Of a DNA stretch of 32,471 nt, positions 1,502-24,340 are shown piece by piece. Position numbers and translations under genes: made by a program. The notes below the pieces were generated by a model that saw nothing but the letters and a program-made list of their open reading frames with translations, was not told the origin of the DNA and made no database searches. This DNA is from a bacterium (GTDB lineage: Bacteria; SAR324; NAC60-12). The DNA lies in assembly GCA_965233585.1 (NCBI GenBank), contig CBDDTI010000435.1, positions 1 through 32,471 on the forward strand, read 5' to 3'. Every line of letters begins with the position of its first letter. Position 1 is the first letter of the stretch.

Positions 1502-2039
1502 ACGGATGACGGGAGCCTGTTTTTAGATGTTTTCGGCCCGAATTCATCTAAAAAAATCTAAATGCGTTCTAAATTCATCTAAATTCATCTAGATGCGTTC
1601 TCGTTGCAAGCAAAACGTCAACTGATTCAATCTAAAAGCATCTAAATGCACACCGATTTCTGGTGCGTGCACCAAAAGTTTGGTGCCTGCATTGCTGTGT
1701 CTAATGCTGGCATGAAAAATTTGGTGCGTGCACGAAAAGTTTGGTGCCTGCATTGCCTCGTCTAATGCTGGCATGAAAAGTTTGGTGCGTGCATGAAAAG
1801 TTTGGTGCCTGCATTGCTTTGTCTAATGCTGGCATGAAAAGTTTGGTGCGTGCATGAAAAGTTTGGTGCCTGCATTGCTCTGTCTAATGCAGGCATGAAA
1901 AAGTTGGTGCACGCACTAAAAATTTCATGCACGCATCAAAATTTTACTTGTCTGCATTACTTTTTCTGGTGCCGGGATCTCAATTTTGACGCTGGCGTGA
2001 AATTTTAGATCCAGGCACCAGAATGTCAGCGGTCCATAG
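1502..2039 (+). repeat. Left terminal inverted repeat (538 bp, outermost bases missing)
   Basis: 1502 ACGGATGACGGGAGC... to ...CAGCGGTCCATAG 2039 is the reverse complement of 21593-22191. Confidence 0.95.
1661..1904 (+). repeat. 61-bp tandem array inside the left TIR (4 units), built of 20/21/20-bp subunits each with TGCnnGCA
   Basis: TGGTGCGTGC at 1661, 1722, 1783, 1844; partial unit from 1905. Confidence 0.92.
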
Positions 2040-3553: not shown

Positions 3554-5146
3554 TTATTTAGGGTTTTGTATGGCTAGATTCATCATGATTTTTTCATTTG
3601 TTTCAAAATTAATCAATTCTCCGTCAAGTCTTTTTAACTGAAAATGCAACAAATCCAGTCGACTTGTATTACACTTTATGTATTCCAAATTTTCAAAATG
3701 CGTCGTCACATAATTGTCTTGTTCCTCGGCTCTATTAATTGGTATAACTTTTAATACAGGGTAAAACTCGTCTCCAATTACCGAGTGATTGACGAAATTG
3801 GCATAGCAGATCATCACTCCCGGATATAGATAGTGCGGATCTAGACGTTCGTCACTTATAAATTGATTACTTTCATCCGCCAAAACAATGTCATCATCTT
3901 GACTTATTCCTAGCAATAATCTTATTTCATGCGGCACTCTTATCCTTACTACCAAGGAGCGATTGAATTGATTGCCGACCCGTTTTACTTTAAAACGGTC
4001 TTTATGCGCGGAAATTTGAATGAGACTTTGTAAATCTTTGCTCATACCATTATACATGGCCTCGATTAATTCATCCGTTGTTTTGATAAACCTTTTCTCA
4101 ATGCAAAAGCAAAATCGCATTGTTTCAATCATTACCCTGATTTTCACAGGTGGAAATGTTTCTGTTGGGTCAGGATTTTGCATTGGCTGTTGCGATATAA
4201 ATTCTTTTTTCTCCGGTCCCATAACAATATATTCTTCTTTGATTCCCAAAATGTTTTTAAATTCGGGCGGTATCAGCACTTTTACCTCAGGTGATTTAAA
4301 TTCGGCATCGTACGTCGTCGGTCCGGTGTAAATTACTCGAAAAAACATATCGGCCGATTCTTTTGTTTTCTCCGTTTGCCCAAATTCAACAAAATTACGT
4401 ACTACGCTGTCTCTTCCGTCGTTTAAGCAATTTAATAAATAAGCAATTGTTTTCCGCTGATCAAGTTTGACCTCGATTTCTTGCTTGAACGGGTCTGTAC
4501 TTACTTTAATTTTCTTATCAAAAACGCTTAACGGAACGCTGTTAACACGATTTGGAAAGGAGATGTCGGCTAAGGCTATTTTAGCTCCTTCGTTTAAATA
4601 AATGGGATGGCTCAAATGTACCTCGAAATTGTTGTTTTTCTGCGCGGGTTTTATGTTGTCGCCCATTTTTGAGTCGACGCGAATGTGCTTTGTCAAATAT
4701 GACATCGCTCGTTTTGTTTTTCGCAAATGAAGTAAAACTAGACTCGGCTGACCCGATTTTAGTTTTAGAAGTTTGTCGGATGCGTCTAAAAACTCAATGC
4801 CCACTGATTTTATTGAAGTGTTTTGAATAGGATAATATCGTATGTTGTTTAAAGTATGGTAGAAATATTTCCGTTTTTTGCTTGAAGGCAAGTCGGCCAC
4901 GCATAAGATGTGAGAATTCTCGTTTGAGCTTGTAGACACAATGTTGGATTTAACCTGCACCACGTCAAAAACAAAATCTTGTTTCACGTTTAAATGCAGA
5001 CCAAAAGCTACAACCCCAACTTCCCAATCTCTTCTTTTGTTTAATTCTAAATTTTTCGGTAAAAAATTGTTAAAACGCGTTAGCGTGTTTACGTAACAAT
5101 CAGTGCTTGCGTTTGAAATGCAATATATAAGATGTCCTCCTTTCAT
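3554..5146 (-). CDS. Minor capsid protein (penton, PX-like); two tandem penton-like modules
   Basis: N-terminal SNAS..Y.NTLT.F...LP..LEL...WEVG and C-terminal ICYANFV.HSVIGD...PVLKVIP...YI......L....FQL...DGELI.F motifs typical of Polinton pentons; both motif sets appear twice (aa 1-147 and 148-530). Confidence 0.8.
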   Translation of the reverse strand: MKGGHLIYCISNASTDCYVNTLTRFNNFLPKNLELNKRRDWEVGVVAFGLHLNVKQDFVFDVVQVKSNIVSTSSNENSHILCVADLPSSKKRKYFYHTLNNIRYYPIQNTSIKSVGIEFLDASDKLLKLKSGQPSLVLLHLRKTKRAMSYLTKHIRVDSKMGDNIKPAQKNNNFEVHLSHPIYLNEGAKIALADISFPNRVNSVPLSVFDKKIKVSTDPFKQEIEVKLDQRKTIAYLLNCLNDGRDSVVRNFVEFGQTEKTKESADMFFRVIYTGPTTYDAEFKSPEVKVLIPPEFKNILGIKEEYIVMGPEKKEFISQQPMQNPDPTETFPPVKIRVMIETMRFCFCIEKRFIKTTDELIEAMYNGMSKDLQSLIQISAHKDRFKVKRVGNQFNRSLVVRIRVPHEIRLLLGISQDDDIVLADESNQFISDERLDPHYLYPGVMICYANFVNHSVIGDEFYPVLKVIPINRAEEQDNYVTTHFENLEYIKCNTSRLDLLHFQLKRLDGELINFETNEKIMMNLAIQNPK

Positions 5147-5151
5147 ACTTG

Positions 5152-6261
5152 TTACGCCTGATTAATAACGCTATCTTCCGCAATCCAGCTAAGGTTTTTA
5201 TAGCCTTTCCACTTCACCAACACCAACTTCTGCCCGGTTCTTTTATCTTTCTTCCTTCTCACAATTTTTTCAATGTGAAATAATTTCGGCGGCTTGGCCA
5301 GAGTCAGCTCATTAGCATAAAAATTTCCCTCCACCGTCTCGTCACCGTCCAGAGTTTCCAGCTCGTATGTAGGTATGGGTAATCGCGTAAACACCCGTTT
5401 GATCTTGTAAATTTCTTCAGTAAATTGCTTATTGTAACCTCTGTCAAATTGAGCTCTGTAGTTACTTATTCTGACCGTCTGGCCTTTCTTAAATTTAGGC
5501 GGTCGCCTCTTTATTTTCGCATAAGCCTCTTCTTGTTTCATTCGGACTTTGGGAGCGTTTTTTGCTTTTTCCGCATCAGCTGGACTCATACCGATCATTC
5601 TATGTACGCGCGAGTTATACGTCTTTACTAAAGATTGAAGCACGTGGATAAATCGATCCGTACCCCTAGATGTCATATATTTAAACATTAGACTTTTTAG
5701 AGATCTGTTAAATCTTTCCACAAACGGCGCGTGCACAAAGTTGTCGCTGTGTAAAAGAGTAATGCCTTTACGTCGACAGTAGTCTTTAAAAAATTTATTT
5801 TTGATCTCTAACCCTCTATCAGCTAGAATTTTTCGAGGCGGCTGGCCAGCCTTATTGACAATGGTTTTGAATCCTTGTAAAAAAACCAAAGCTGTCTTGT
5901 TTTTTATGGGTTCAACAAAGGCATATCTCGAAAAAATGTCGATCGCTGTCAGCAAGTAACGATAATTGTCATTCGCGTTTGCCATTTTCCCAATTTCAAC
6001 CAAGTCTATTTGGAATTGATATCTTTTGTAATAAACATAGGTTGGGTTCCTAGGTTTTGGAGCCTTAGGTTGTCGGTGCAGAGTATAGGTGTCCGACGCC
6101 TGCAGCCATTTCTTTATTTTATTTATGGGTATGGTCCCGTTAAAATGATTAAAAACGCGGTTCGGCGATGAAAAAGCAAAAGGCGAGCCGGGCGAAGTGT
6201 AAGCTTTTAAAAATTCGCGTTTAGTAATCATCCTCGTCGTCGTCGTTGTCGTCCTCAACAT
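5152..6261 (-). CDS. Retroviral-like (RVE) DDE integrase with C-terminal chromodomain
   Basis: FQIDL (D), ILADRG (D), VERFNRSLK (E); YTLH motif; chromodomain FHIEKIV...LVKWKGY...SWI; real start may be ATG 6231. Confidence 0.95.
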   Translation of the reverse strand: MLRTTTTTTRMITKREFLKAYTSPGSPFAFSSPNRVFNHFNGTIPINKIKKWLQASDTYTLHRQPKAPKPRNPTYVYYKRYQFQIDLVEIGKMANANDNYRYLLTAIDIFSRYAFVEPIKNKTALVFLQGFKTIVNKAGQPPRKILADRGLEIKNKFFKDYCRRKGITLLHSDNFVHAPFVERFNRSLKSLMFKYMTSRGTDRFIHVLQSLVKTYNSRVHRMIGMSPADAEKAKNAPKVRMKQEEAYAKIKRRPPKFKKGQTVRISNYRAQFDRGYNKQFTEEIYKIKRVFTRLPIPTYELETLDGDETVEGNFYANELTLAKPPKLFHIEKIVRRKKDKRTGQKLVLVKWKGYKNLSWIAEDSVINQA

Positions 6262-6649
6262 AAAACAGCGGTTTTTGTTTTGTTTTTCTTCTCTTACCGC
6301 TTCCTACCGCATGCGTGCTATTTTTTCTCTTGACCGGTCTCTTGGACGCCTGTGCAGGCCTACTCGCCTTACCAGCCAGTAAGATGTTTCTAGTCGCGGA
6401 TTTTAATCTCTTTTTCGCAGCGGCTCCAACTGCTTTGCCGTCCAAGGCTTCCAGTGCGGTGTCAATGGCCGCTCGTCCCGCCTCTTTTTTCAAATATCGT
6501 CCCGCGGATCTGACACCCTCGCTTCTCGCAATTTTACCGATTGTCTTTGCGGCGCCCTTCGCCACCGGAACCAACGACCGGAAAAGACTGCTAAAAATTG
6601 AACCTAATCCCGCCCCAGCTTGCACAGACGGACCACGGTGGTATCGCAT
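6221..6649 (-). CDS. Basic virion core/membrane-active protein (QxGxG plus amphipathic helix family of Polintons)
   Basis: VQAGAGLGSIFSSLFRSLVP N-terminus; K/R-rich body; acidic tail. Confidence 0.8.
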   Translation of the reverse strand: MRYHRGPSVQAGAGLGSIFSSLFRSLVPVAKGAAKTIGKIARSEGVRSAGRYLKKEAGRAAIDTALEALDGKAVGAAAKKRLKSATRNILLAGKASRPAQASKRPVKRKNSTHAVGSGKRRKTKQKPLFYVEDDNDDDEDDY

Positions 6650-6655
6650 ACTTTA

Positions 6656-7375
6656 TCAATTTTCAATTTTTTTGACGCACCTGCTTAAGGCCATCGGACT
6701 AACGCCTAATTGCTCGGCTAAACGCGATAAGCTTTTCGGCTTTTCCTGATCAACCCTACTCCGTTGTTCTCTTAAAAAGACGTGCGCGCATGCCGCGATT
6801 AGTGTTTTTGGCGAAAAAACAAACTTTTTTTCGTGTTGCTTTACTTTCTCTCTAATTTCCTTCAACTCCTTGTAGCTTAGATTTAAAGAGTGAAGAAAAT
6901 ATTCGCACATTAAATTTGGGCTGTAGAAAGAGTCGTCGTTTTTAAGATATTGCCACACTTTGTCCTGCTTGACGCCGGTTATGGCACATAAATCTTTCAT
7001 CGGTCGCGGCACCCCCGACTCTATAAGCGCGGTGTAGATGCACATTACCGCTAAACTTTCTAAACAAACACCTCTTTTCCCTCTTTTCCCGCTAGCGTCC
7101 CATTTTTTGGCGATGACGCGTTTTAAATCCGCGCATTCGATATTGCACTTATAGCATACCCTTTGCATTGTCTCATCAGTAAAATTGTTTTTGTCGCAAG
7201 TCACATCCTCGCTCATTTTCTCCGTTTTAATCGATTCGAGCCGATAGTCATACGGGGCATATAGCCGATCATGCATCACGAGCCCGCAATCTGTACATAC
7301 TTCACACCCGTTTGAAAAATCATCCACAATATTGTAATGAGAACAAGTCCTGTTGAAATTATGAAAACGAGGCAT
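6656..7375 (-). CDS. TFIIB-like general transcription factor
   Basis: Zn ribbon CSHYNIVDDFSNGCEVCTDCGLVM; cyclin-fold repeat 1 AVMCIYTALIESGVPRPMKDLCAITGV; repeat 2 SPKTLIAACAHV...SLSRLAEQLGVSPMALSRCVKKI. Confidence 0.9.
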   Translation of the reverse strand: MPRFHNFNRTCSHYNIVDDFSNGCEVCTDCGLVMHDRLYAPYDYRLESIKTEKMSEDVTCDKNNFTDETMQRVCYKCNIECADLKRVIAKKWDASGKRGKRGVCLESLAVMCIYTALIESGVPRPMKDLCAITGVKQDKVWQYLKNDDSFYSPNLMCEYFLHSLNLSYKELKEIREKVKQHEKKFVFSPKTLIAACAHVFLREQRSRVDQEKPKSLSRLAEQLGVSPMALSRCVKKIEN

Positions 7376-7418
7376 GTTTATTTCTCCGCACGCGCTGCAA
7401 AACTGAAACGCGAATCAA

Positions 7419-7979
7419 CTATCGATCGCTTTTATATTGTTTCAAAAAATCTATAATAAAGTCCAAACTATGTTTGACCGCATCTTCGGACTTGGCCCCG
7501 ATGATTACCATCTTGCCTGTGGAAAATATTAAAACCGTGTTGGCTTCAAAAGTCACAAACATGCCTGGGAAACGTTCGGGATTGAAGCGTACTTTTTTCA
7601 CGTAGCTCTCCTTCCGAAGTTTATCAAAAACGTCCGGCAGCGGTATCTCAAAGCCCGCACGAAAGGAACAAGTTAAATTGTTTATTTCCCATGTTTGCAC
7701 AAAGAAACGATTGCTGATAATGTCCGTCAGCAGACTTAACGATATTTTTATATCCGCTCGCGATGGCACTTTGGTAATATTGACATGATATGATTTGTTG
7801 TTTCCGCGGGTCTTGAAAATGGTGTAGACGTATTGTTTCCTCACTACCGTAAAATTACTAAAAACTTTTTGTGACACATCTTTATTTAAGGATAACGGCC
7901 CCTCATCCGTAAGAATAATTGTGCAGCTAAGCTTTATATTTGTCACAGTGACGTGCTCCGTGTTGTCTAGAAATGTCAT
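7419..7979 (-). CDS. TATA-binding protein (TBP)-like factor
   Basis: C-terminal repeat INNLTCSF..GFEIPL...FNPERFPGM....NTVLIFSTGKMVIIGAKSED is a clear TBP signature; N-terminal repeat diverged (VTNIKLS...NFTVV...YTIF...VNIT). Confidence 0.92.
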   Translation of the reverse strand: MTFLDNTEHVTVTNIKLSCTIILTDEGPLSLNKDVSQKVFSNFTVVRKQYVYTIFKTRGNNKSYHVNITKVPSRADIKISLSLLTDIISNRFFVQTWEINNLTCSFRAGFEIPLPDVFDKLRKESYVKKVRFNPERFPGMFVTFEANTVLIFSTGKMVIIGAKSEDAVKHSLDFIIDFLKQYKSDR

Positions 7980-9313
7980 CGTTGATTAATGGCGGTGTCG
8001 GCGGTTTAAATGTGGATTTCAATGAATTGCAGGGTGATAGTTTGAATGCGCATGCGACCCCCCTCGAAGACACGGATTTAATATCAGGTCGTACTGTGCT
8101 ATATAGTAGCGTGACTCCCGTCGAAGATTTAGAAGATGTTACGTTTTCAATTCCTTCCGACCCCGAATGCGCTTTTGTTTTAAATCAGACGAGGCTAGAG
8201 GGTTACTTTGTGGTAAAGACCGACAGCGGCGAGGGTGTAACAGACACTGACACGCCAACAATTACTAACCATTATTGCGCCGCATTATTCTCGCAAATTG
8301 AAGTCCACCTTAACGGAACTCAAATATGTGATTTGAGTGCCCCTCTTTCTTATTCGTACAAACACCACATTGACTTTCTCCTGTCCTATAACAATAATGT
8401 ATTAACAAATGTGGGACGGTCCGAAGGCTTTTGCCGAACGCACCACGACAAATGCTTTGACAATATTACCACGACCGGTAAAATGTGCCAATGCATCGCG
8501 GAGAATCGTGCGAAAATAATAAACGACAAAAAAGTTTATTTTAGCTCAACTTTGCCCGCAGATATTTTTTACACCGACAAATATTTACCTCCGAATGTGG
8601 AAATCACTGTTGTATTACGCAGGTTCAACCCGTGTTTCGGGCTGCTTCAAGATAATCCGAACAAAGTCTATCGCATTCGTTTAAAGGAATTAAAACTTCG
8701 CATGAGAAAAGTGTTACCGTGCGAGCGTGTGCGAAACAGGCTAAACGCCGAACTGCTAAAAGGTCGACCATTTTTTCTGCCTTTTAAAGACACGCAGATG
8801 AAGCATTATCTGATCCCGTCTGGTTCCCTTAGTTTCTCTGCAAATCACATCAACAATAGCGAGATGTTGCCGCAACAAATTATTTTCTGCATGCTTCGAA
8901 GCGACCTTTTTGCCAAGGGACCGAGCGATCAATTTCCCTTTAAATTTAAACACGCCGATTTAGCATCCGTCATTTTAAAAAACAATGGAAGACCCCTCTT
9001 GCCTAGACCTATAGAATGCAAGATACTTACAGGCGATTATATGGAATTGTACGACCATTTTCAAAGCAACGTCGGCGGCAGAAATTGTATTTCACCCCAA
9101 GCTTTTACAGAGGGTCAGATGTTTCTCGCGTTCGACCTGACTCCGGATAAATGCCTATCCTTTCACAATCACGTCGGAGTGCCCGGAAATTTAGAACTAG
9201 ACTTGACTTTTAACACCCCCACCAGAACCCCCTTAACCCTGATTTCTTACGCTATTTATAATGCTGCCATTTCCATCGACAGCAACCTTCAGGTTACCAA
9301 AATAAAATATTAA
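7973..9313 (+). CDS. Major capsid protein paralogue 1 (double jelly-roll, PY-like)
   Basis: LFSQIEVHLNG, DIF..DKYLPP.V, LPQQIIF, FLAFDLTPD, GNLELDLTF motifs; alignable along its length with 9383-10717. Confidence 0.88.
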   Translation: MSSLINGGVGGLNVDFNELQGDSLNAHATPLEDTDLISGRTVLYSSVTPVEDLEDVTFSIPSDPECAFVLNQTRLEGYFVVKTDSGEGVTDTDTPTITNHYCAALFSQIEVHLNGTQICDLSAPLSYSYKHHIDFLLSYNNNVLTNVGRSEGFCRTHHDKCFDNITTTGKMCQCIAENRAKIINDKKVYFSSTLPADIFYTDKYLPPNVEITVVLRRFNPCFGLLQDNPNKVYRIRLKELKLRMRKVLPCERVRNRLNAELLKGRPFFLPFKDTQMKHYLIPSGSLSFSANHINNSEMLPQQIIFCMLRSDLFAKGPSDQFPFKFKHADLASVILKNNGRPLLPRPIECKILTGDYMELYDHFQSNVGGRNCISPQAFTEGQMFLAFDLTPDKCLSFHNHVGVPGNLELDLTFNTPTRTPLTLISYAIYNAAISIDSNLQVTKIKY

Positions 9314-9382
9314 AATTGCACACCGCCGACTCCCTCTTTTTAAGAAGAACAGAAAACTACAGACTAGCATGCATTTTCGACA

Positions 9383-10717
9383 ATGACTGAAAAGGGTGGC
9401 ATCGGAGGTCTAGGGTTCGAGCAGGACGATTTGACAGAACAAGCTCTTGATCTGCACGCGCCGCTCGGGGTCGATATAAGCCTTGAAAAAGGCAATGATG
9501 TGGTCTACAACAGCGTTTCCAGCGTTTCAAACACCGGACCGATCGAATTCATCATCCCGCGAGACGAAGAGTGTTCCATCATTCTGGATCAGACTAGATT
9601 AATAGGGCATTTCGTTGTCAAGACAGCAAAGGATGAAAATGTCGGACCCGACGATCGAGTCTTTCTGGCCAATAATTTCGCGAGCAATCTATTTAGCGCG
9701 GTTGAAATCTACATTAACGGTACTCAAGTCTGCGACTTGAGCACGGCAAATTCCTACCCTTTCAAAAACTTTATCCAGACCGAGTTGTCGTTTGATAGAG
9801 AGGCCAAACAGAGTCAGCTAAGAGCCGAAGGTTATTTTGAAGAAAAAGAAAACGATATTGGAGCTTGCGAGCCCGGTATAAATCAGCGTTTAATACACCG
9901 TCGAAATCTTATACTTCACGGCAAAAAAGTTTATTTCTGCTCTCGATTGGGGGCGGATATTATGTATACGGATAAGTATATGCCACCGAATGTCGACATC
10001 AAGATTAAGCTTATTAGAAACAGTCCGACATTCGGTATTCTTCACGCCGAAGATGACAAATCTTTTAAAATCGTTTTAAAGGATTTAAAGTTGAAAATGA
10101 GAAAAGTTTTGCCGGTCGAGCAGCAGAGAAAGCATTTTAGGATGAAAATGTCTCAACAGCCCTGCTATATACCCTTTAAGCTGAGTCAGTTGAAGGTTTT
10201 TGTGATTCCAGCCGGCGTCACATCGTACACCGTTACCAATATTGCCTCACAAATACTGCCCAAACAAGTTATTTTCACCCTAATTCACAACCAAGCCTTG
10301 ACGCACGATAGCAAATTCAACCCGTTCGACTTTCAACACTTTGATCTTAATTATTTCAATCTTATTAAAAACGGACAATGCGTCTTCCCAAAAGCTTTTC
10401 AGCCGGATTTTGATGATGATAACTACATGGACCTGTACAGACACATGTACGACAGCACGGGTTTCGGCATTTCAAATAGTTCTTGCGACATTTCGCCCGC
10501 GGTTTTTAAGAGAGGAAGATGTTTTCTAACTGCCGATTTGACCCCCGATCGCTGCAACAGTTTTCACATTCACCCCGACGAAAAAGGCAAGTTGGACTTG
10601 GAATTAGGCTTTAAAACAGCCAAGCCTCACCCCATCTACCTGCTAGCCTACAGCATTTTTAATTCCGGAATTAAAATAGAGGAGAACGGCCAAGTTGTTA
10701 GGGCCGAAGAGCGATAA
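9383..10717 (+). CDS. Major capsid protein paralogue 2 (double jelly-roll, PY-like)
   Basis: GPIEFII, LFSAVEIYING, NSYPFK.FI, LPKQVI, NPFDFQHFDL, DLTPD, LELGF motifs. Confidence 0.9.
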   Translation: MTEKGGIGGLGFEQDDLTEQALDLHAPLGVDISLEKGNDVVYNSVSSVSNTGPIEFIIPRDEECSIILDQTRLIGHFVVKTAKDENVGPDDRVFLANNFASNLFSAVEIYINGTQVCDLSTANSYPFKNFIQTELSFDREAKQSQLRAEGYFEEKENDIGACEPGINQRLIHRRNLILHGKKVYFCSRLGADIMYTDKYMPPNVDIKIKLIRNSPTFGILHAEDDKSFKIVLKDLKLKMRKVLPVEQQRKHFRMKMSQQPCYIPFKLSQLKVFVIPAGVTSYTVTNIASQILPKQVIFTLIHNQALTHDSKFNPFDFQHFDLNYFNLIKNGQCVFPKAFQPDFDDDNYMDLYRHMYDSTGFGISNSSCDISPAVFKRGRCFLTADLTPDRCNSFHIHPDEKGKLDLELGFKTAKPHPIYLLAYSIFNSGIKIEENGQVVRAEER

Positions 10718-11202
10718 TGGCCGGTTTGAGCAACGTATTTCTAGATCGGTTTTTATCCCCACTTTGCAAGAATTTCATCGGCACCTTTGCAGTCGACACG
10801 TTACCCTCAAACTTGTGGAACACTAGCTGTTGCGCCATCGTCAATCTTTCGGTTTCAAGCCATCCCGGCAGTCATTTCATCGCCTTTTTTATTAATAAGC
10901 AAAACTATTTGTATTATTTCGACAGCTATGCACTACCCGTGCCCGCCTATAATCACCACCTCATCCATTTTTTGAAAAAATGGGAAAATTGCGGCAGAAT
11001 AAGACATGTCCTGGACCGATCGATTCAAGCTTTCGATTCTTTGTTTTGCGGGTGGTATGCTGCCGCATTTTGCATGTTTGTCAATGCATACGCAAACGTG
11101 AAGCCGCGACACTTTTGCACTTTTTTTAATCCCAATAATTTACGCGAAAATGAAAAACGCGTCAAACATTTAGTTAATTGTTTGCAAGTCAAGCTTTATT
11201 AG
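10717..11202 (+). CDS. Adenain-like (Ulp1/C5-type) cysteine maturation protease
   Basis: IVN....HPGSHF (His), YFDSY (Asp), IQ...S.FCGWY (Gln, Cys); TAATG overlap with the MCP2 stop. Confidence 0.93.
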   Translation: MAGLSNVFLDRFLSPLCKNFIGTFAVDTLPSNLWNTSCCAIVNLSVSSHPGSHFIAFFINKQNYLYYFDSYALPVPAYNHHLIHFLKKWENCGRIRHVLDRSIQAFDSLFCGWYAAAFCMFVNAYANVKPRHFCTFFNPNNLRENEKRVKHLVNCLQVKLY

Positions 11203-11325
11203 AATATACAGAATTGCCTATAATGTTTTAGTTAATAAAAAGCCGCAAATCTGATTTCTGTTCTGCAGCAAAGCTGCAGTCGCCGCCGTTGCCGCGGCTG
11301 TTGCCGCGGTTGCACACACGCATCT

Positions 11326-14534: not shown

Positions 14535-15170
14535 ATGACGCACAAGTGTGAAACGTGTCACATATCGTTTTCCAGAAAGAGTCGTCTTGCCAATCATTTA
14601 AAATTAAAACACAGAAATCAAGCAAATCATAATGGTCGCGACAAGTTGAGAAAGTGCCCGTTTTGTGAACTTAAATACAGTGATAAGAACGAGTTATCGT
14701 CTCACGTAGATTCGAATCACGCGGAATCAAGGGTATTTTCTAAAAGGCAAGGAGCCATTGGCGACAAAGTTTGCATTTTCCAACAAGAACTGACTCACCT
14801 AAAAAGCTCTTTGCAAGATTTTTGCAACTCTAAGCAAACGATCGAAAATGTGTTTAATCTCGTTAAAAGTCAATTTACACATCGGGTGGTTTGTCGAATA
14901 AGTATAACAATCACGGCAGATTACGAGATACAGGGTTTAGATGAAGAAAGTCAGGGAAAAAGCGTCGACATCGATTCTTTCACGTTACGGTCAAAAGGCG
15001 TCGCGGTCAACAAATATCAAAGCGATGAGCAGATTCGAGATAGGATAAAGTCACTTTTGGCTGGATCGGTGGAGAGGGAAGACGATTTGTTAACTAGAGG
15101 TTCAGGCTGGCGATTTGCTCAACTTCAAAGTTGCAGCGTTTTAATCTATGACTGTAGCAGTATTTTTTAA
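14535..15170 (+). CDS. Two C2H2 zinc fingers plus terminal-protein-like region normally at the pPolB N-terminus
   Basis: CETCHISFSRKSRLANHLKLKH and CPFCELKYSDKNELSSHVDSNH; RGSGWRF motif near the C-terminus; TATATAAAG ~70 bp upstream. Confidence 0.8.
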   Translation: MTHKCETCHISFSRKSRLANHLKLKHRNQANHNGRDKLRKCPFCELKYSDKNELSSHVDSNHAESRVFSKRQGAIGDKVCIFQQELTHLKSSLQDFCNSKQTIENVFNLVKSQFTHRVVCRISITITADYEIQGLDEESQGKSVDIDSFTLRSKGVAVNKYQSDEQIRDRIKSLLAGSVEREDDLLTRGSGWRFAQLQSCSVLIYDCSSIF

Positions 15171-15172
15171 TA

Positions 15173-18100
15173 ATGAACAGCGACTCTGTAAACGTGCCCG
15201 AGTATTTATTAAAGTGTCGAAGTGTTTTATGGAACAGAAAATACGATGAAAAGAATTTTCTATATTGTGTCATAGGACATCTTTGGCCGGAAACGGCAAA
15301 CATCAGACGATGCAAAAAAATTCCAAAGGAGTATGAAAGTAAATTTAACTTGCAGGGTTTAACCTTTCCCCTGCAGTTTAGCCAGATTAGCAAGTTTGTT
15401 CGAATTAACAAGCACCTACCGTTACGTATAAGAGTTCTTTTTGAAGGTGAACATCAACTGAGTGTTTTAGACGTTTTCTCCAATAGATCTGGCGAGAAAA
15501 ATAAGAACAAAAATACGCTAAATTTGCTAATGATTAAAAGTGATCGTCAAATTTCATCGGCCAATAAAGACAGCATTGACGTAAATGGCATTTCCAACGT
15601 AAAAGACCTTGAGCATCAGCACCATTTTTTCACTATTGCTAATTTAAATGGCTTTCTGAACAACCGAAAATCTGCTATGACCAAAGGAAGACGGCATAGA
15701 AGTCAGTTTTATTTTTGTGACAGCTGTTTAAGAGATTTTCGTTCGCGCAAGAAACAAAAATTACACGAAAAAATCTGTCAAATGGATAAACAAGCGGTGA
15801 TTTATCCAGAAAAGGGCAGTGTCTTGAATTTCGATAAGCAAAGAAATGCTTTTAAAGCACCTGTAGTGGGATTTGCTGATTTTGAGTGTTTTATGGAAAA
15901 GTCAGAGCAAGAAGCAAAAACATGTAAAACATGCGGAAAAGCGTGGGTGACATGCGAATGTCAAGTGTCGGGATGCGCTGAGCTAAGTAAACATCGAGCT
16001 TGCGGCTATTCAATTTGTTTTGTCGATTCGGAAAACGAAGTATTTTATCAAGAAACGTACAGTGGAAAAGACGCTGTGGAAAATTTTCTATCAAAGCTGG
16101 ATTATTTCGAAGAATTAGTGGAAGCGCGAAAGCAACGGTTCAAGAACACATCTCAAATTATAGCGAGCAAACATGATTGGGAAGAGTACCACGCCGCCAC
16201 GCTATGTCATATTTGCAAAAAAGATTTTGATTCAGGCTCGCGATTATATAAAAAAGTGGTTGATCATGATCACGTCACCGGAAACATTGTTCAAGCGGCG
16301 CATTCTATTTGCAATCTGCAACGACAGGGCCCATTTAGAACACCTATATACTTTCACAACGCCAAGGGGTAAGTACAGACTTTTTTAATATTTATAATCC
16401 TTGACTTGAGGGAAAGTCATTTTAAATTTTTTTAATTTTAAGATATGACATAAATCTACTAGTAGAAAAATTGGACAAAGAGGCTAATCTGATGGCGAGT
16501 AACCAAGAAAAGTTTAGGACAATCACTATTGGAAAATTTCAAATTAGGGATTCTCTAGAGCACGTGCCATCCAGTCTTGATGCGCTCATGACCGATTTAT
16601 GCAAGGATGAGACGTTTACCTTTCCGATTCTCAAACAATTCGAGCCTTACAAGAGGCTGTGGACGCGACAAAAGGCGAAAGGTTTAAAATTATTGAAAAG
16701 AAAAGGAGTATATCCGTATGAATACTTTTCATCATATGAGTCGATTAAAAACAGTCAATTTCCGCCAAAAGACGCTTTCTACTCGAGATTGAGCGAAGCC
16801 CACATCTCAACCGAAGATCATAAGCACGGCTATGAAGTGTTCAAGTTTTTTAATTGTAAAAATATGGACGACTACATGAAGTTATATTGCGGACTGGACG
16901 TGATTTTGCTGGCTGAGATTTTTGTAAAGTATCGAGAAATGGTGATGAAGCACTTTGAGTTGGATCCCATCTACTATTTAGGCATACCTGGCTTGTCATT
17001 TGACATCATGCTTAAAATGTTTCAAAATGAAGAAAGAAAAGACGAAGAAGAGATTAGTCCTGATTTAATGTCGAAACCACCGGGCTCATTGGACTTGTTT
17101 CACGATCCGGCAATGGAACAGTTTTTTACACGCGGCATTAGAGGAGGGCAGAGTTTTATAGCTACCAGACAAGCGACGGGTCAGGCCGATCCTAAAGCGA
17201 GCGGCGAGCATTTACTATATGTAGATGGTAATATTTTTTATTAAACGTCAAAGAAAAAAAGATTGATTAAAATTACGATACATTTTCAGCTAACAATCTT
17301 TACGGCAGCATGGAAACACGCATGCTGCCGGTGGGTAATTTTAAGTGGGTGCCAAAAAAGGAGATAAAAACATGGACGGACAAGGACATTTTGAATTTGC
17401 CTTCGCAAAGCAGGATTGGCTATGCTTTTGAAGTGGATTTGCACTATCCAAAAAAATATCATGAGGTAAATAATTGTTTCTGCTAAACACCAACTGCTAG
17501 AAAAATTTTTTTTATTTATTTTGCAGAGAGATGATCAATTTCCTTTGGCTCCTTACACTGACACAATAAACTTTGATGATCTGTCACCGTTTAACAAACA
17601 ACTTTTGAAGAAGCACTGTCCGACTGATTACAAAAACAAACGTTACAGTTCGCGAAAGCTTCTTGCCACATTCTACCCGCGACGTAAATATGTCGTCTTG
17701 TTAGATAATCTAAAGTATTATTTGAGGCGAGGGCTGAAGCTTACAAAAATCAGACGAGCGGTCAAGTTTGAGCAAAAAGACTTTTTAAAAAACTTTATCA
17801 CAAAAATTACAAAATTAAGGTCGGAGGCAAAAACTGATTTTGAATTACGTCTCTTCAAGTTGTTTGCCAATTCCACATTTGGCAAATTTATAGGTAAAAT
17901 AAAGTAATGGCTCCCTTTTTTCACAATAAAATGTTTAATTTTTTTCAGAGAACGCGCGAAACTACATCGAAATCGTATTGTGCCACAATGAAAAGAAGCT
18001 GAGAAAGACTTGCATGGGTCAGCATGTTTCGAATTTGAAAGTCATAAACGAAAACCTTGTGGCTGTCATGAAAAAACCGGCCGTTATTGAAATGAAGAAA

Positions 18101-18736
18101 CCGTTGGCGGTGGGGTTTGCGATTTTGGAACTATCCAAACTCTACATGTATCGATCGTACGACAAATTTAGACGTTACTTTGGAACGGAGAATCTAAGGT
18201 TGTGCTTTTCGGACACAGACTCGTTTCTGTTTCAAGTAAAATGTCAAAATTTAGTTAAAAAGTTAAAAAGAATGGAACACATGTTCGACTTCTCAAAATA
18301 CGATAAAGATCACGAGTTGTTTGACGATAGCAGAGCCAATCATTTGTTTTACTTCAAAGACGAGCTAAAAGGAAAGGCCGCAATTACTGAATTTATCGGC
18401 TTAAGGCCAAAATGTTACAGCATGACGGTCAAGGATTTGAAAACCCGAGGAGCCAGCGTAAAGAAAATTTGTAAGGGCCTTAAAAAAACTAGTATTAAAA
18501 ATCACTTGACCTTTGAGGATTATAAAAAATGTTTAAACGAATCAACATTGGTATATAAGCCTCTTGTTAATATTAAATCAAAGAATCACAGAATGTCAAC
18601 AACCTACCAACGGAAAATTGCTCTATCTGCCATGGACACCAAACGTTATGTGCTTTCTTGCGGAAAGTGCACTTTGGCCTTAGGAAGTTGTCATGTAAAA
18701 AAATGTTATAAACATGAATGTAAGGAAATCAAATAA
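15173..18736 (+). CDS. polB: Protein-primed family B DNA polymerase, 5 exons (15173-16368, 16443-17227, 17290-17465, 17527-17893, 17949-18736; 1103 aa)
   Basis: ExoI FADFEC; endonuclease VII-like insert CHIC...DHDHVTG....AHSICNL; splicing restores FHNAKGYD (ExoII), YVDANNLYG (A) and KLFANSTFGKFIEN (B); FSDTDS (C), RKGVYPYEY and GLRPKCYS present; all introns GT-AG. Confidence 0.95.
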
Positions 18737-18798
18737 ACGTATTGATAAAAATTGATCGTAATATTTTGTCTCTTTTTTGTGACAAGAAAATTAAAAAC

Positions 18799-19485
18799 AT
18801 GGACGGATTTGATTTGCGCTTTAAGCTTCCATCTAACTTACTCGCGGTAGGTCCCACTTCTTGCGGAAAAACGTCATGGCTAAAAAAACTGGTTGAAGAT
18901 AGGGCCGTAATGTGCTCGCCCGTTCCGGAATGTATGATTCTATTTTACAAAGAATTCCAACCGACCTATGCTGATATGGAGCGGGGGATGAACGATGACG
19001 CGCGTGAAAAGAGGTTTTGCAAATTTTCATCCATGCCAGAATCGGTTGAAGAGATGAAAGATATACTGGAAACGTTCCCTAGAGCTCTTCCGAAAATTGT
19101 GGTATTTGACGATTTTCTTGATGAAGTAGGATCGGTGCTAAAGCACTTTTTCACGGTTTTAACGCATCATTATAATTGTTTGACAGTTTTTTTGTGTCAG
19201 AACATGTTTAGCGCCAAAAGCGAACTCAGAATGCTCAGCATCAACTCGCAGTACATGATTTTATTCAACAATCCCAGAGACCGTAGCGCCGTCTCGCACC
19301 TGGCTAAACAGGTGTATCCGGGTAACGTGCATCGGCTAAACGATGCATATGCGGCAGCAACCGGTGAAAGACCTTATGGCTATTTACTGCTGGATTTTCA
19401 TCAGCAGCAAAATAATTTGGTTCGATTAAGAAGTCATATTTTTCCGGACGAACAGCCTACAAGGGCGTACAACGTACGCACGTAA
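18799..19485 (+). CDS. A32/FtsK-like DNA packaging ATPase
   Basis: Walker A GPTSCGKT, Walker B IVVFDD, HHYN, QN.F, NSQYMILFNNPRD, PYGYLLLD; ATG 18799 preferred over the TTG at 18742. Confidence 0.93.
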   Translation: MDGFDLRFKLPSNLLAVGPTSCGKTSWLKKLVEDRAVMCSPVPECMILFYKEFQPTYADMERGMNDDAREKRFCKFSSMPESVEEMKDILETFPRALPKIVVFDDFLDEVGSVLKHFFTVLTHHYNCLTVFLCQNMFSAKSELRMLSINSQYMILFNNPRDRSAVSHLAKQVYPGNVHRLNDAYAAATGERPYGYLLLDFHQQQNNLVRLRSHIFPDEQPTRAYNVRT

Positions 19486-19515: not shown

Positions 19516-19869
19516 ATGACGAAATCACTAGAAAAAGCAGTTTCTCTTTTAAACGCGGTAAAACATTTAAAAGACCGTGACTGTTCCAATTTCATTGGAT
19601 GTTTAAACGAGGAAGGCATCTATACTCTGTGTCGAATAATACACTACGTTTTGAACGGAGAGCTTACTTTTAGTAAGCGCGTTCGAGCAAGGTTAAGATC
19701 GAAAGTCGGGTGTCATCTGCCTGACTTTAAAAAACTGTCAAATTACCCGCGCAATAGTCGAGATATTTGCAAAAAGAAGCGAATACTGCAAAGAGGAGGC
19801 ATAATCGGGGTTCTGACGGCTATTGCTAGCGCTGTAATACCTCTAATCACTCAACTTATTACAAAATGA
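19516..19869 (+). CDS. Conserved small Polinton virion protein (QxGG site followed by an amphipathic C-terminal helix)
   Basis: KKKRILQRGGIIGVLTAIASAVIPLITQL; typical position after the ATPase. Confidence 0.8.
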   Translation: MTKSLEKAVSLLNAVKHLKDRDCSNFIGCLNEEGIYTLCRIIHYVLNGELTFSKRVRARLRSKVGCHLPDFKKLSNYPRNSRDICKKKRILQRGGIIGVLTAIASAVIPLITQLITK

Positions 19870-21592: not shown

Positions 21593-22204
21593 CTATGGAC
21601 CGCTGACATTCTGGTGCCTGGATCTAAAATTTCACGCCAGCGTCAAAATTGAGATCCCGGCACCAGAAAAAGTAATGCAGACAAGTAAAATTTTGATGCA
21701 TGCATGAAATTTTTAGTGCGTGCACCAACTTTTTCATGCCTGCATTAGACAGAGCAATGCAGGCACCAAACTTTTCATGCACGCACCAAACTTCTCATGC
21801 CAGCATTAGACAAAGCAATGCAGGCACCAGATTTTTCGTGCACGCGCCAAACTTTTCATGCCAGCATTAGACGGAGCAATGCAGGCACCAAACTTTTCAT
21901 GCACGCACCAAATTTCTCATGCCGGCATTAGACGGAGCAATGCAGGCACCAAACTTTTGGTGCACGCACCAAATTTCTCATGCCAGCATTAGACACAGCA
22001 ATGCACGCACCAAACTTTTGGTGCACGCACCAGAAATCGGTGTGCATTCAGATGCTTTTAGATTGAATCAGTTGACGTTTTGCTTGCAACGAGAACGCAT
22101 CTAGATGAATTTAGATGAATTTAGAACGCATTTAGATTTTTTTAGATGAATTCGGGCCGAAAACATCTAAAAACACGCTCCCGTCATCCGTTTTTACTAT
22201 TACT
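21593..22204 (-). repeat. Right terminal inverted repeat (5 x 61-bp units at 21728-22032)
   Basis: Reverse complement of 1502-2039 plus one extra 61-bp unit and up to 13 extra terminal bases (TTTTACTATTACT). Confidence 0.95.
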
Positions 22205-22844: not shown

Positions 22845-22849
22845 ACTTG

Positions 22850-23958: not shown

Positions 23959-24334
23959 AAAACAGCGGTTTTTGTTTTGTTTTTCTTCTCTTGCCGCTTG
24001 CGCGCTATTTTTTCTCTTGGCCGGTCTCTTAGACACCTGTGCAGGCCTACTCGCCTTACCAGTCAGTAAGATGTTTCTAGTCGCGGATTTTAATCTCTTT
24101 TTCGCGGCGGCTCCAACCATCCTGCCGTCCAAGGCTTCCAGCGCGGTGTCGATGGCTGCTCGTCCCGCCTCTTTTTAAATATCGTCCCGCTGATCTGACA
24201 CCCTCGCTTCTTGCAATTTTACCGATTGTGTTTGCGGCGCCCTTCGCCACCGGAACCAACGACCGGAAAAGACTGCTAAAAATTGAACCTAATCCCGCCC
24301 CAGCCTGCACAGACGGTCCACGGTGGTATCGCAT
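23918..24334 (-). pseudogene. Core protein (QAGAG) pseudogene
   Basis: Frameshift in the T-run near 24172-24178 and a small deletion near 23998 relative to 6221-6649. Confidence 0.88.
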
Positions 24335-24340
24335 ACTTTT

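Follow-up and report, generated by a model that had tools for sequence, protein, structure and literature searches.

The 32,471-bp stretch of DNA analysed here (the window) encodes, within a Polinton/Maverick element, two adjacent ORFs that resemble the initiation factors TBP and TFIIB. Polintons/Mavericks are regarded as minimal virus-like elements, wholly reliant on the host for transcription, and as related to the lineages from which adenoviruses, virophages and giant viruses arose. The question that this locus raises is what such an element does with a TBP-TFIIB pair of its own. The features on which the answer draws are collected in Table 1.

Table 1. Features of the two element copies in the window, in order of position.
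Feature	Position (bp)	Strand	Size	Basis or remark
Polinton/Maverick element, copy 1	1502–22191		20.7 kb	TIRs and gene content
Left TIR	1502–2039	+		Contains a 61-bp tandem array
530-aa protein (orf530)	3554–5146	-	530 aa	No Pfam match; last gene of the conserved block
Integrase, rve core and chromodomain	5152–6261	-		Pfam
Small basic protein	6221–6649	-	142 aa	Next downstream of the TFIIB-like gene; no Pfam match
TFIIB-like gene, copy 1	6656–7375	-	239 aa	Family profile, AF2, Foldseek
TBP-like gene, copy 1	7419–7979	-	186 aa	Pfam TBP, AF2, Foldseek
Consensus TATA box TATAAAAG	7429–7436	-		About 55 nt upstream of the TFIIB-like ATG
DJR-like capsid candidate 1	7973–9313	+	446 aa	Atlas lead only
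DJR-like capsid candidate 2	9383–10717	+	444 aa	Paralogue of candidate 1
Probable adenain-like cysteine protease	10717–11202	+	161 aa	Weak
Protein-primed family-B DNA polymerase	15173–18736	+		Four ORF pieces: 15173–16372, 16471–17244, 17521–17907, 17978–18736
Probable packaging ATPase	18742–19485	+	247 aa	Weak
Right TIR	21593–22191	-		Inverted match to left TIR, termini read directly
Element copy 2, partial	22200–28932			Collinear with 4501–11230, 94.7% identity
TFIIB-like gene, copy 2	24341–25060	-	239 aa	Intact
TBP-like gene, copy 2	25107–25664	-	185 aa	Intact

The element, its gene map and its second copy

The TIRs (85% identical over 599 columns, about 540–600 bp), the protein-primed family-B DNA polymerase and the rve-chromo integrase identified the element as a Polinton/Maverick. 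The rve domain scored 40.3 bits (cut-off 32.6) and the Chromo domain 21.8 bits, under its cut-off of 25.1, while PF03175 was found in the polymerase pieces at 30.5 and 27.5 bits (cut-off 25.8). No target-site duplication was found, as the hexamers flanking copy 1 differed; the right flank of copy 1 is the partial second copy, and the junction may be rearranged. The capsid candidates were 39% identical to each other (E 2e-98). Candidate 1 had no Pfam match, and its nearest Atlas cluster was eukaryotic with PF21738 (DJR-like_dom) in 15% of its members. The best PDB matches of the probable protease were chains named 'Protease', at a non-significant E of 0.11. The probable ATPase contained a visible P-loop-like GPTSCGKT and matched Pfam ATPase_2 under the cut-off (E 0.0015), with nothing significant against the PDB. 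A Pfam scan of 23 ORFs revealed no RNA-polymerase domain, as the initial annotation had stated, and the longest ORF in the window, among those of at least 80 aa, encoded 530 aa.

The TBP-like and TFIIB-like ORFs were co-oriented, uninterrupted and 43 bp apart, and the ATG of the TBP-like gene overlapped that of capsid candidate 1 head-to-head by 7 nt. The initial annotation had placed the pair between the capsid and core/integrase genes in both element copies, and the map bears this out, with the DJR-like genes on one side and the basic-protein and integrase genes on the other. Copy 2 is decaying: its DJR-like genes were broken up into several ORFs, and at both ends its integrase ORF departed from that of copy 1. 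Comparison of the two copies of each gene gave dN/dS values that were not near 1, namely 0.26 for the TBP-like gene (dN 0.033, dS 0.128) and 0.20 for the TFIIB-like gene (dN 0.024, dS 0.120).

Homology and predicted folds of the two products

The product of the TBP-like gene was confirmed as a TBP homologue by sequence profile and predicted fold. Pfam TBP (PF00352) matched residues 98–182 only, at 61 bits (cut-off 22.9, E 9.9e-17), such that one stretch was recognised and the second (N-terminal) TBP repeat was not picked up. When the protein alone was searched against the PDB, all 35 of the 35 among the matches listed were TBPs (best E 3.1e-17), and the family profile reached 2.2e-23 with the archaeal TBP 1mp9. 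Archaeal TBPs were the top-scoring cellular relatives of the family by profile and reached approximately 1e-25 in the homology search. The AF2 model (pLDDT 91.8, pTM 0.81) had a two-lobe beta/alpha pattern, and 44 of its 45 Foldseek matches at E ≤ 0.001 were TBP chains, those 44 all at E ≤ 1e-6, with TM-scores of 0.57–0.70 over 187–208 aligned columns (approximately 190), i.e. full-length. AF2 and Foldseek together predicted a two-lobe saddle fold for a protein with 17–24% identity to cellular TBPs in the structure alignments.

The three TBP motifs reported in the initial annotation were all located, NPERFPG at residues 133–139, LIFSTGK at 150–156 and GAKS at 161–164. The C-lobe of the family profile matched cellular TBPs with a probability of 99.2 and an E of 6.4e-20 (hhalign), and it was through this lobe only that the full profile aligned to them. 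The N-terminal repeat, described earlier as strongly diverged, proved to lie beyond sequence detection, the N-lobe profile giving no significant hhalign match to cellular TBPs as a TBP repeat (E 0.1, probability 0.57%). The H1 helix was absent from the N-lobe of the predicted model.

The product of the TFIIB-like gene was likewise confirmed as a TFIIB homologue by sequence profile and predicted fold. It comprises a probable zinc ribbon (approximately residues 11–33), a disordered linker (36–62) and two cyclin-like repeats of five helices each (68–146 and 153–238), the second of which finishes in an HTH-like stretch with weak HTH Pfam matches (residues 208–239). On its own the protein remained under the Pfam cut-offs for both Zn_Ribbon_TF (PF08271, 22 bits vs 29) and the TFIIB repeat (PF00382, 14.6 vs 23.6). 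The 19-member family profile matched human TFIIB at 5.2e-9, via the ribbon and the first cyclin repeat, and the 204-residue TFIIB core chain 1vol_A at 7.1e-5. The ribbon ligands C11, H13, C27 and C30 (CHCC) were invariant across the 19 sequences, the profile aligned with the human and yeast TFIIB ribbons, and PF08271 was precomputed for 11 of the 28 family clusters. An archaeal contig (L002) was set aside as a TFIIB-like relative, its match being to the ribbon alone (residues 1–53).

The AF2 model of the TFIIB-like protein, of moderate confidence (pLDDT 73), contained ten helices, five to each set. Foldseek gave 30 matches at E ≤ 0.001, every one of them a pre-initiation complex or a TFIIB/TFB core, headed by Pol II/III pre-initiation complexes and TFIIB/TFB cores with E from 4.5e-6; the global TM-scores were low (approximately 0.3) because domain placement differed, and identity to cellular TFIIBs was 13–19% in the structure alignments. 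The two cyclin repeats claimed from the sequence are borne out by the profile, the ten-helix model and an orthologue that exceeds the PF00382 cut-off in a distant element (below), the zinc ribbon is probable, and the predicted folds of both proteins are of the TBP/TFIIB type.

Alignment of the profile with human TFIIB revealed the B-reader/B-linker between ribbon and core to be nearly absent: profile positions 40 to 59 corresponded to human residues 48 to 114, leaving 18 profile positions in place of 65 residues, and residues 36–62 of the model were disordered (pLDDT 29–49). The earlier remark that the protein lacks EWRTF, which we take to be the B-reader motif of TFIIB, was also correct, as no such motif was visible in it. 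In Pol II systems the B-reader/B-linker is needed for start-site selection and DNA opening. As only approximately 18 positions replace these 65 residues, canonical TFIIB function may not be possible for this protein.

A conserved gene block and the TBP-TFIIB interface

The pair belongs to wider families of 34 TBP-like and 28 TFIIB-like clusters, which extend down to approximately 33–40% identity and retain many invariant columns. For nine of the 28 TFIIB-like clusters the longest contig was the same size as that of some TBP-like cluster, including contigs of only 1794, 3532 and 5462 bp, an indirect indication that the two genes are co-located on the same contigs. The TBP-like profile was matched in a single stretch by 141 of the 150 best 50%-identity representatives, most of them near full length; judged by sequence, the window TBP is a member of a large family of compact TBP-like proteins. 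Two proteins of this family carry generic JGI 'TBP' names, and the next tier of relatives in the homology search was archaeal, with no virus named in either tier. The nearest Atlas clusters were viral TBP clusters, mostly of Nucleocytoviricota, and this lead is the one source from which a viral affinity of the family is read.

A 22.9-kb contig from elsewhere (L001) was found to keep the block TBP-TFIIB-basic protein-rve-chromo integrase-orf538 in the order and orientation of the window, where orf530 is the last gene. Identities between the two elements were 28% (TBP), 23% (TFIIB), 32% (basic protein), 35% (integrase) and 26% (orf530/orf538). The L001 TBP matched Pfam at 1.9e-11, its TFIIB matched PF00382 at 27.2 bits (cut-off 23.6) and PF08271 at 23.9 bits (cut-off 29), and the stretch between ribbon and core of this TFIIB was even shorter than in the window protein. 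The basic protein (9e-11), the integrase (1e-74, with rve and Chromo both above cut-off) and, weakly, orf530 (8.7e-10) were matched. Outside the block, L001 matched the DJR-like candidates 1 and 2 (2.5e-26 and 2.6e-56), all four polymerase pieces and the protease (2.8e-14), the orthologue of which scored 0.0019 with Pfam Peptidase_C5, under the cut-off. As the copy-2 ORFs are intact, dN/dS is 0.26 and 0.20 and the five-gene block is kept in this related element at 23–35% identity, the pair is a module that a Polinton lineage has long kept under selection, not a host retrocopy.

The initial annotation had further held that the TFIIB-contacting C-terminal repeat of the TBP is conserved. This was true of the lobe as a whole (E 6.4e-20) but not of the contact itself. 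N133 of the TBP-like protein aligned with the archaeal Glu equivalent to human TBP E284, while E135 (the E286 equivalent) was retained; of 159 family-level sequences, 128 had Asn at position 133 and nine had Glu. On the TFIIB side, human R169 aligned with I118, which was invariant in the 19-member alignment, and K188 with Q137. The corresponding positions in L001 were Asn and Asn in the TBP with Asn at the R169 site of the TFIIB, compared to N133/E135 with I118 in the window, so that co-variation was seen as two states only, too few for statistics. The R169E substitution in TFIIB has been cited as blocking its association with TBP-TATA, and in pull-downs of the citing study it weakened the binding of TFIIB to TBP (PMC6004067). 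Viral TBP-TFIIB pairs are reported, in the available text of PMC7221094, to co-evolve at these same stirrup and Arg positions, and the window has both genes in one genome with stirrup and Arg positions both changed, as in the orthogonal pairs of that study. The changed E284/R169 contact fits a private pair better than the initial annotation realised, and it is adjacency, co-conservation and the aligned contact residues that suggest a pairing of the two proteins.

The Asn, Phe and Thr positions named next presumably form the DNA-binding face of TBP. Among 159 aligned sequences of the compact family and its relatives, those of the C-lobe were conserved in 154 (N101), 159 (F137) and 159 (F152), with F137 and F152 aligning to the Phe of archaeal FPG and LIF. 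Those of the N-lobe were conserved in 144 (N14), 136 (F/Y43), 147 (F55) and 144 (T69), equivalences that come from a non-significant alignment (E 0.1) read with the AF2 model. The C-lobe Thr of TBPs contacts the minor groove; in the window protein this position was Ile, and in 147 of the 159 sequences it was Ile, Val or Leu. The DNA-face role of such residues is also drawn from the available text of PMC7221094.

Promoter motifs, proposed function and known systems

The consensus TATA box upstream of the TFIIB-like gene fell within the last codons of the TBP-like gene. This was one of five ORFs, of 18, with a sense TATAWAWR at -100 to -15 (mean 0.70 at random positions, P = 0.0005); none of the three capsid-module ORFs had an upstream consensus TATA. 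These motifs speak neither for nor against the earlier suggestion that Pol II is redirected to the structural genes. Over the whole window TATAWAWR was modestly enriched (27 vs 14.2 expected, a count matched by one shuffle in 100), and L001 had one within 100 nt upstream of its 19 ORFs. Host TBP could equally serve these canonical TATA boxes. TATTTAAR, which precedes the DJR genes of the window and of L001 alike, was considered as an element-specific promoter motif and rejected as being at chance level (window 8 vs 7.7 expected, 47 of 100 shuffles; L001 6 vs 3.9, 19 of 100), and no element-specific motif emerged from the two sequences.

The reading that we favour, with somewhat more confidence than doubt, is that the products of the two ORFs form a cognate TBP-TFIIB pair specific to the element, one that belongs to the conserved gene set of one Polinton/Maverick lineage. 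Homology, folds, conservation and synteny suggest that the pair is probably a private module that recruits host Pol II. The compact TBP-like protein, in which the Asn, Phe and Thr positions lining the DNA-binding face appear to be kept, would bind and bend AT-rich (TATA-type) core promoters of the element. The TFIIB-like protein would dock on its C-terminal stirrup via the remodelled interface, where Asn and Ile at the E284 and R169 positions may make the pair partly orthogonal to host factors, and its CHCC zinc ribbon would recruit one of the host's nuclear polymerases, Pol II being the likeliest. The element could then start its own transcription independently of the supply or regulation of host TFIID/TFIIB. 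In this scheme we infer the binding of DNA, the mutual binding, the polymerase recruited, the promoters served and initiation with almost no B-reader/B-linker.

The alternative that survives best, although unlikely, is a decoy or interference module that sits on promoters, or ties up polymerase or host factors, and does not itself initiate, by which host transcription would be shut down or re-programmed, or the element shielded from host TBP repressors. The loss of most of the B-reader/linker would agree with this, as would the divergence of the N-lobe past sequence detection; the N-lobe signatures for host regulators are missing from viral TBPs, which might evade those regulators, according to the available text of PMC7221094. 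However, a decoy needs no DNA-binding TBP and ribbon-bearing TFIIB that stay neighbours across 23–28% identity, and conservation is strict at the zinc ligands and at the presumed DNA-face residues. Short TFIIB-like proteins (186–245 aa) are also present in NCLDVs, most of which transcribe with their own RNAP, so the short form need not be inactive.

A role with Pol III, as TBP-Brf has, or with Pol I is quite unlikely, whether for the two proteins together or for each of them with a host partner; such a role might be, for example, to make small non-coding or leader RNAs. TBP-TFIIB-like pairs occur in all multisubunit polymerase systems, as described in the accessible part of PMC12917281, and Brf1-containing Pol III complexes were among the fold matches (6cnb_R, 6f40_V, 8iue_V and 6f42_V). 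Additionally, without B-reader/linker the TFIIB-like protein is not a canonical Pol II TFIIB. Its profile nevertheless recovered TFIIB and archaeal TFB from the PDB and no Brf chain at E ≤ 10, and the top fold matches were Pol II complexes. The protein also stops where the second cyclin repeat stops and lacks a C-terminal extension of the Brf type, and the window contains no tRNA or Rfam RNA genes.

Very unlikely is a DNA-architectural role, for instance one in which the pair bends DNA at the terminal repeats or the origin to assist protein-primed replication, integration or packaging. In its favour, TBP bends DNA, and the genes for a basic (core-like) protein and the integrase belong to the same conserved block as the pair. 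We know, however, of no role of a TFIIB-type zinc ribbon and cyclin core in replication, integration or packaging, the literature searched held no precedent, and no TATAWAWR lay at the TIR termini, the nearest being at 2240–2249, inward of the repeat end. Recent retrocopies of host genes, or decaying passengers with no function, which intronless genes inside a repeat element with a decaying second copy might suggest, are hardly credible and were rejected, given the low identity to cellular TBPs (only 17–24%) and TFIIBs (13–19%), the dN/dS of 0.20–0.26, the breadth of the families (34 and 28 clusters, with 141 of the 150 best representatives matching the TBP-like profile in one stretch) and the recurrence of the block in L001, which contradicts recent copies absent from related Polintons.

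Were the private Pol II module to be real, control of initiation would belong to the core strategy of at least one Polinton lineage, in a 20-kb element. The pair would be a very small natural orthogonal eukaryotic initiation module, a part for synthetic biology and a handle on what the B-reader/linker is really needed for. A wider proposal, speculative and rather unlikely, is that of a lineage of small polymerase-less Polinton/MELD viruses in which a minimal TBP and a reader/linker-less TFIIB, insulated from host TBP/TFIIB by a rewired stirrup contact, drive host Pol II, perhaps ancestral to the TBP/TFIIB set of Nucleocytoviricota. If true, initiation would be possible without a canonical reader/linker, and Polinton-like ancestors may have had the set before viruses gained an RNA polymerase. 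The gene pair offers a concrete test of whether giant-virus transcription factors descend from Polinton-like viruses, as has been proposed.

Compared with cellular and archaeal TBP and TFIIB/TFB, the pair shares the predicted two-lobe saddle and the probable CHCC ribbon with two cyclin repeats and a C-terminal HTH-like stretch. It differs in a TBP with an N-lobe undetectable by sequence, no H1 in the model, E284 replaced by Asn and the C-lobe Thr by Ile, and in a TFIIB with R169 replaced by Ile, K188 by Gln and the B-reader/linker shortened. The TBP mimic of beta/gamma-herpesviruses (ORF24/UL87/BcRF1), which brings host Pol II to viral promoters, is alike in concept only, being a single large protein of an unrelated virus realm with no TFIIB-like partner. 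Poxvirus VITF-3, as described in the accessible part of PMC12917281, is an atypical TBP/TFIIB-like heterodimer and, like the window pair, a virus-encoded, strongly diverged pair; it acts as one promoter factor. By that description it differs in working with the viral RNA polymerase, which loads it onto DNA as a closed ring.

The literature searched, apart from the supplementary virus lists of PMC7221094, held no report of a TBP-TFIIB pair in Polintons. 'TBP' appears in figure legends of MELD-virus maps in the adintovirus paper (Starrett et al. 2021, PMC8502044; preprint 10.1101/697771), as a legend entry only, and the available text mentions no TFIIB-like partner. The idea of private viral TBP-TFIIB pairs is itself already in print: orthogonal pairs of dsDNA viruses were published by Ravarani et al. 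2020 (PMC7221094). In the available text of that study, both genes lie in one viral genome and C.L3.2/C.L3.4 and the TFIIB Arg depart from Glu/Arg; these sites correspond to Asn133/Glu135 and Ile118 in the window, where the DNA-face residues appear to be kept and the N-lobe lacks the cellular signatures. NCLDV TFIIBs were the best viral fold matches of the TFIIB-like model (Marseillevirus, 6.7e-6), with one archaeal virus also named, although at 12–17% identity they were no closer than cellular TFIIB. Unlike these NCLDV pairs, as far as the available text describes them, the window pair is carried by an integrating Polinton of 20.7 kb, where the Pfam scan revealed no RNA polymerase. The initial annotation had regarded TBP/TFIIB genes as typical of large Nucleocytoviricota with their own RNAP; the genes are not confined to viruses of that kind, as the chloroviruses show. 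According to the available text of PMC7019647, PBCV-1 and its relatives lack a recognisable RNAP but do encode a putative TFIIB and a putative TFIID, move to the nucleus and take over host transcription. By the same description, they differ from the window element in a genome of 280–370 kb, in the lack of rve integration and in encoding numerous further transcription genes (TFIIS, VLTF2/3, capping enzymes).

The element and its two copies

Self-comparison of the window, with the element ends read directly, revealed inverted terminal repeats (1502-2039 and 22191-21593, 85% identity), which bound a Polinton/Maverick element of 20.7 kb (copy 1). No target-site duplication was seen flanking copy 1 on direct reading of these ends. 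Both repeats contained 61-bp tandem arrays with a 20-bp sub-period (1661-1925, 4.3 copies; 21696-22032, 5.5 copies), and a 138-bp satellite-like tandem array (4-569, 4.1 copies, 91% matches) lay beyond the element in its left flank. The longest ORF in the window, among those of at least 80 aa, was 530 aa. A domain scan of 23 ORFs found no RNA polymerase domain, which agreed with the absence of an RNA polymerase gene claimed in the initial annotation.

Features of the element in the window
Feature	Coordinates	Strand	Remarks
rve integrase	5152-6261	-	40.3 bits (cut-off 32.6); chromodomain-like tail
TFIIB-like ORF	6656-7375	-	239 aa, uninterrupted
TBP-like ORF	7419-7979	-	186 aa, uninterrupted
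DJR-like genes 1 and 2 (DJR1, DJR2)	7973-9313, 9383-10717	+	tandem paralogues, ~445 aa each, 39% identical
Probable adenain-like protease	10717-11202	+	weak match
C2H2 zinc-finger ORF	14535-15170		directly upstream of PolB; Pfam 27.7 bits vs 25.2
Protein-primed PolB	15173-18736		four ORF pieces; PF03175 30.5 and 27.5 bits (cut-off 25.8)
Probable ATPase	18742-19485	+	weak match
Lysine-rich ORF	19866-21440		524 aa, near right element end

The lysine-rich ORF had no Pfam match; 78-bp and 120-bp tandem repeats within it (20720-21116) encode reiterated DENEPLSKLRR-type units. A weak Endonuclease_7 match was present in the first PolB piece (residues 342-388). As a lead, the clusters nearest to the DJR-like genes in the Atlas, a cluster resource, were eukaryotic, and in the top one 15% of members carried a DJR-like domain.

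A second copy (copy 2, 22200-28932) was collinear with 4501-11230 of copy 1 (94.7% identity). It begins 8 bp beyond the right terminus of copy 1 and is truncated at both ends, starting within the homologue of orf530 and stopping just past the protease homologue. The DJR-like genes of copy 2 were broken into several ORFs and its TBP-like and TFIIB-like ORFs were whole, so that the pair, first noted in both copies, is intact in each.

The TBP-like protein and the TFIIB-like protein

The two ORFs were found at exactly the coordinates originally assigned to them, adjacent, co-oriented and separated by 43 bp, and the TBP motifs NPERFPG, LIFSTGK and GAKS reported for the 186-aa protein were all present. 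Residues 98-182 matched the Pfam TBP domain with 61 bits (cut-off 22.9, E 9.9e-17), and all 35 matches among PDB sequences at E<=0.001 were TBPs (best 3.1e-17). The model, folded with a 20-sequence alignment (pLDDT 91.8, pTM 0.81), predicted two strand-helix repeats, the first lacking the H1 helix. Foldseek comparison of this model with the PDB gave 45 matches at E<=0.001, and ranks 1-44 were TBP chains (187-208 columns aligned, TM 0.57-0.70, identity 17-24%).

An exhaustive search with the TBP-like family profile (A1) retrieved 3672 proteins at E<=1e-3, of which 939 reached E<=1e-10 and 12 reached E<=1e-30. Among the 150 best representatives at the 50% identity level, 141 matched in a single stretch, most of them covering nearly the whole profile and being 165-190 aa long; the remaining nine had two matches on the C-lobe, as in cellular TBPs. 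Residue counts were taken over an alignment of 159 sequences, of which 148 were representatives and 10 were close relatives, the remaining one being that of the window. This revealed N14 in 144, F/Y43 in 136, F55 in 147, T69 in 144, N101 in 154, and F137 and F152 in all 159; position 133 was Asn in 128 and Glu in nine, and position 160 was Val, Ile or Leu in 147 and Thr in seven. In a further search with a broader alignment, the listed matches lacking the archaeal domain PF11858 (E ~1e-29 or better) were all on contigs of 38 kb or less, and the next were mostly archaeal TBPs (~1e-25) on contigs as long as 3.7 Mb. In the Atlas the nearest clusters, again as a lead only, were TBP clusters with mostly viral members (Nucleocytoviricota). 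Comparison of profiles A1 and A3 with the PDB and the protein database showed that the closest cellular relatives were archaeal, not eukaryotic; in the PDB, archaeal 1mp9 scored 2.2e-23 against ~1e-16 for eukaryotic TBPs, and in the protein database archaeal TBPs carrying PF11858 scored ~1e-25. This affinity may reflect ancestry, or merely a more symmetric archaeal sequence.

The TFIIB-like protein alone stayed below the Pfam cut-offs (Zn_Ribbon_TF, 22 bits against 29; TFIIB repeat, 14.6 against 23.6). A profile of 19 TFIIB-like relatives (A2) matched human TFIIB (5.2e-9) in two stretches, one on the ribbon and one on the first cyclin repeat; its matches to yeast TFIIB and archaeal TFB were weaker. 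Among the many invariant columns were C11, H13, C27 and C30, the four putative zinc ligands. The model was moderate (pLDDT 73.0) and predicted a small beta ribbon (16-27), disorder (36-62) and ten helices arranged as two groups of five. At E<=0.001 there were 30 PDB matches, each of them either a pre-initiation complex of Pol II or Pol III or an isolated TFIIB/TFB core (best 4.5e-6), with cyclins appearing only below rank 34; the global TM was only ~0.3 because domain placement differs. In a viral fold library there were 27 matches at E<=0.001 (identity 12-17%), some just 186-245 aa long, the named ones being NCLDV TFIIB-like proteins and one archaeal rudivirus protein. Between ribbon and first cyclin repeat, 18 profile positions (between 40 and 59) stood against 65 human residues (between 48 and 114), which leaves essentially no B-reader or B-linker and bears out the lack of a B-reader motif noted earlier.

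Alignment of the stirrup FNPERFPG with archaeal YEPEQFPG (HMMER) placed N133 at the first Glu, the second Glu being kept as E135. The ungapped alignment of A2 with human TFIIB (114-196) placed R169 on I118, which was invariant in A2, and K188 on Q137. R169E is cited as blocking the association of TFIIB with TBP-TATA, and in pull-downs it weakened TFIIB binding to TBP (PMC6004067); E284R and E286R lower transcription (PMC7221094). At the corresponding sites a related locus (L001, described below) had two Asn residues in its TBP-like protein and one in its TFIIB-like protein. As judged from these residues, the window pair fits the pattern of what the authors of PMC7221094 term an orthogonal TBP-TFIIB system, the two states seen (window and L001) being too few to test co-variation.

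Conservation and linkage of the pair

Comparison of copy 1 with copy 2 gave dN/dS of 0.033/0.128 for the TBP-like gene and 0.024/0.120 for the TFIIB-like gene. A word-indexed search (E<=1e-3) found 34 TBP-like clusters (to ~33% identity) and 28 TFIIB-like clusters (to ~38%), with many columns that did not vary. Nine of the latter had a longest contig of exactly the length recorded for a TBP-like cluster (38135, 13686, 9421, 11102, 1794, 5462, 9991, 3532 and 10665), an indirect sign that the two genes share contigs; three of these are shorter than 5.5 kb. One 187-aa database protein (P0030) matched both queries, over 38% of the TBP-like and 57% of the TFIIB-like query, and is probably chimeric, an ORF left by rearrangement or deletion in a copy of a related element.

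A scan of genome contigs gave direct evidence of linkage in L001 (JANYCR010000279.1, locus 1-20651), on a contig of 22.9 kb (22,906 bp) filed under a bacterial MAG, assigned to Leptospiraceae; the most likely reading of this locus is mis-binning of a eukaryotic virus-like element. Its TBP-like protein matched Pfam at 1.9e-11 and its TFIIB-like protein matched PF00382 above cut-off (27.2 bits), with 23.9 bits for the ribbon. The gene order was TBP-like, TFIIB-like, small basic protein, rve-chromo integrase and a 538-aa protein, with 28, 23, 32, 35 and 26% identity, respectively, to the TBP-like protein, TFIIB-like protein, basic142, integrase and orf530 of the window, and order and orientation of this five-gene block were alike in both. 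L001 also encoded homologues of the DJR-like, protease and PolB proteins of the window, completing a Polinton gene set. From the selection, the conservation and the L001 block it follows that a Polinton lineage has long carried the pair as a linked unit under selection. The reading of the two genes as functionless retrocopies from the host was rejected on the dN/dS between copies, the family conservation and the five-gene block.

The window has DJR1 and DJR2 whereas L001 has a single DJR-like gene, whose product is closer to DJR2 (2.6e-56) than to DJR1 (2.5e-26). The PolB frame, in four pieces in the window, is in two in L001 (2456-3442 and 3937-6564), with a break of ~500 bp at a place homologous to the window; this may be an intron or conserved split, not decay. 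The window zinc-finger ORF had weak matches within the N-terminal part of the L001 PolB ORF at 3937-6564.

Promoters, proposed mechanism and known systems

The window contained 27 copies of TATAWAWR, where 14.2 (sd 3.9) were expected; one of 100 shuffles reached 27. The motif was sense-oriented at -100 to -15 of 5 of 18 copy 1 ORF starts (mean for random positions 0.70, P=0.0005), namely those of the TFIIB-like gene, of orf203, orf249 and orf530, and of the zinc-finger ORF that precedes PolB. Only TATA-like variants were present at the TBP-like gene and the three capsid-module ORFs, and the 100-nt upstream stretches of the 19 L001 ORFs contained one TATAWAWR in all. TATTTAAR, considered as a shared element motif, was at chance level in the window and L001 and was rejected. 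A TATA-type promoter architecture is plausible for the element; the TATAWAWR and TATTTAAR analysis of window and L001 gave no element-specific motif or special link to structural genes. The ATGs of the TBP-like gene (-) and DJR1 (+) overlap head-to-head by 7 nt (7973-7979), and the promoter of each gene must therefore lie inside the coding sequence of the other. TATA-like boxes are present ~35-40 nt upstream of both ATGs.

The initial annotation had proposed a Polinton with its own TBP and TFIIB as an initiation module; the observation is real and the interpretation was supported in part. We lean slightly towards a cognate TBP-TFIIB module that would nucleate initiation at element promoters and recruit a polymerase of the host, Pol II being the likeliest, with the rewired contact partly insulating it from host factors. 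The basis for this is homology, fold predictions, conservation, linkage, the lack of an RNA polymerase gene among the ORFs scanned and the positioned TATA boxes. From these we infer DNA binding, mutual binding of the two proteins, the polymerase recruited and the target promoters; initiation would proceed without reader and linker. Less probably, the pair could serve another polymerase, act as a decoy or in interference, or have a DNA-architectural role.

In the literature searched, with subscription journals, figures and supplementary tables outside its scope, no description of a TBP-TFIIB pair in Polintons was found; in one paper, the passages on Polintons and TFIIB concern NCLDV TFIIB only. 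In the adintovirus paper and its preprint (PMC8502044, 10.1101/697771) 'TBP' is named in the legend to maps of MELD viruses, and TATA-binding proteins are described as sporadic in mirusvirus-related algal elements. The concept of an orthogonal viral TBP-TFIIB pair has already been set out (PMC7221094). Chloroviruses encode a putative TFIIB and TFIID without a recognisable RNA polymerase (PMC7019647), and in poxviruses an atypical TBP/TFIIB-like pair is represented by VITF-3 (PMC12917281). The pair in the window falls within the known category of viral TBP-TFIIB pairs.
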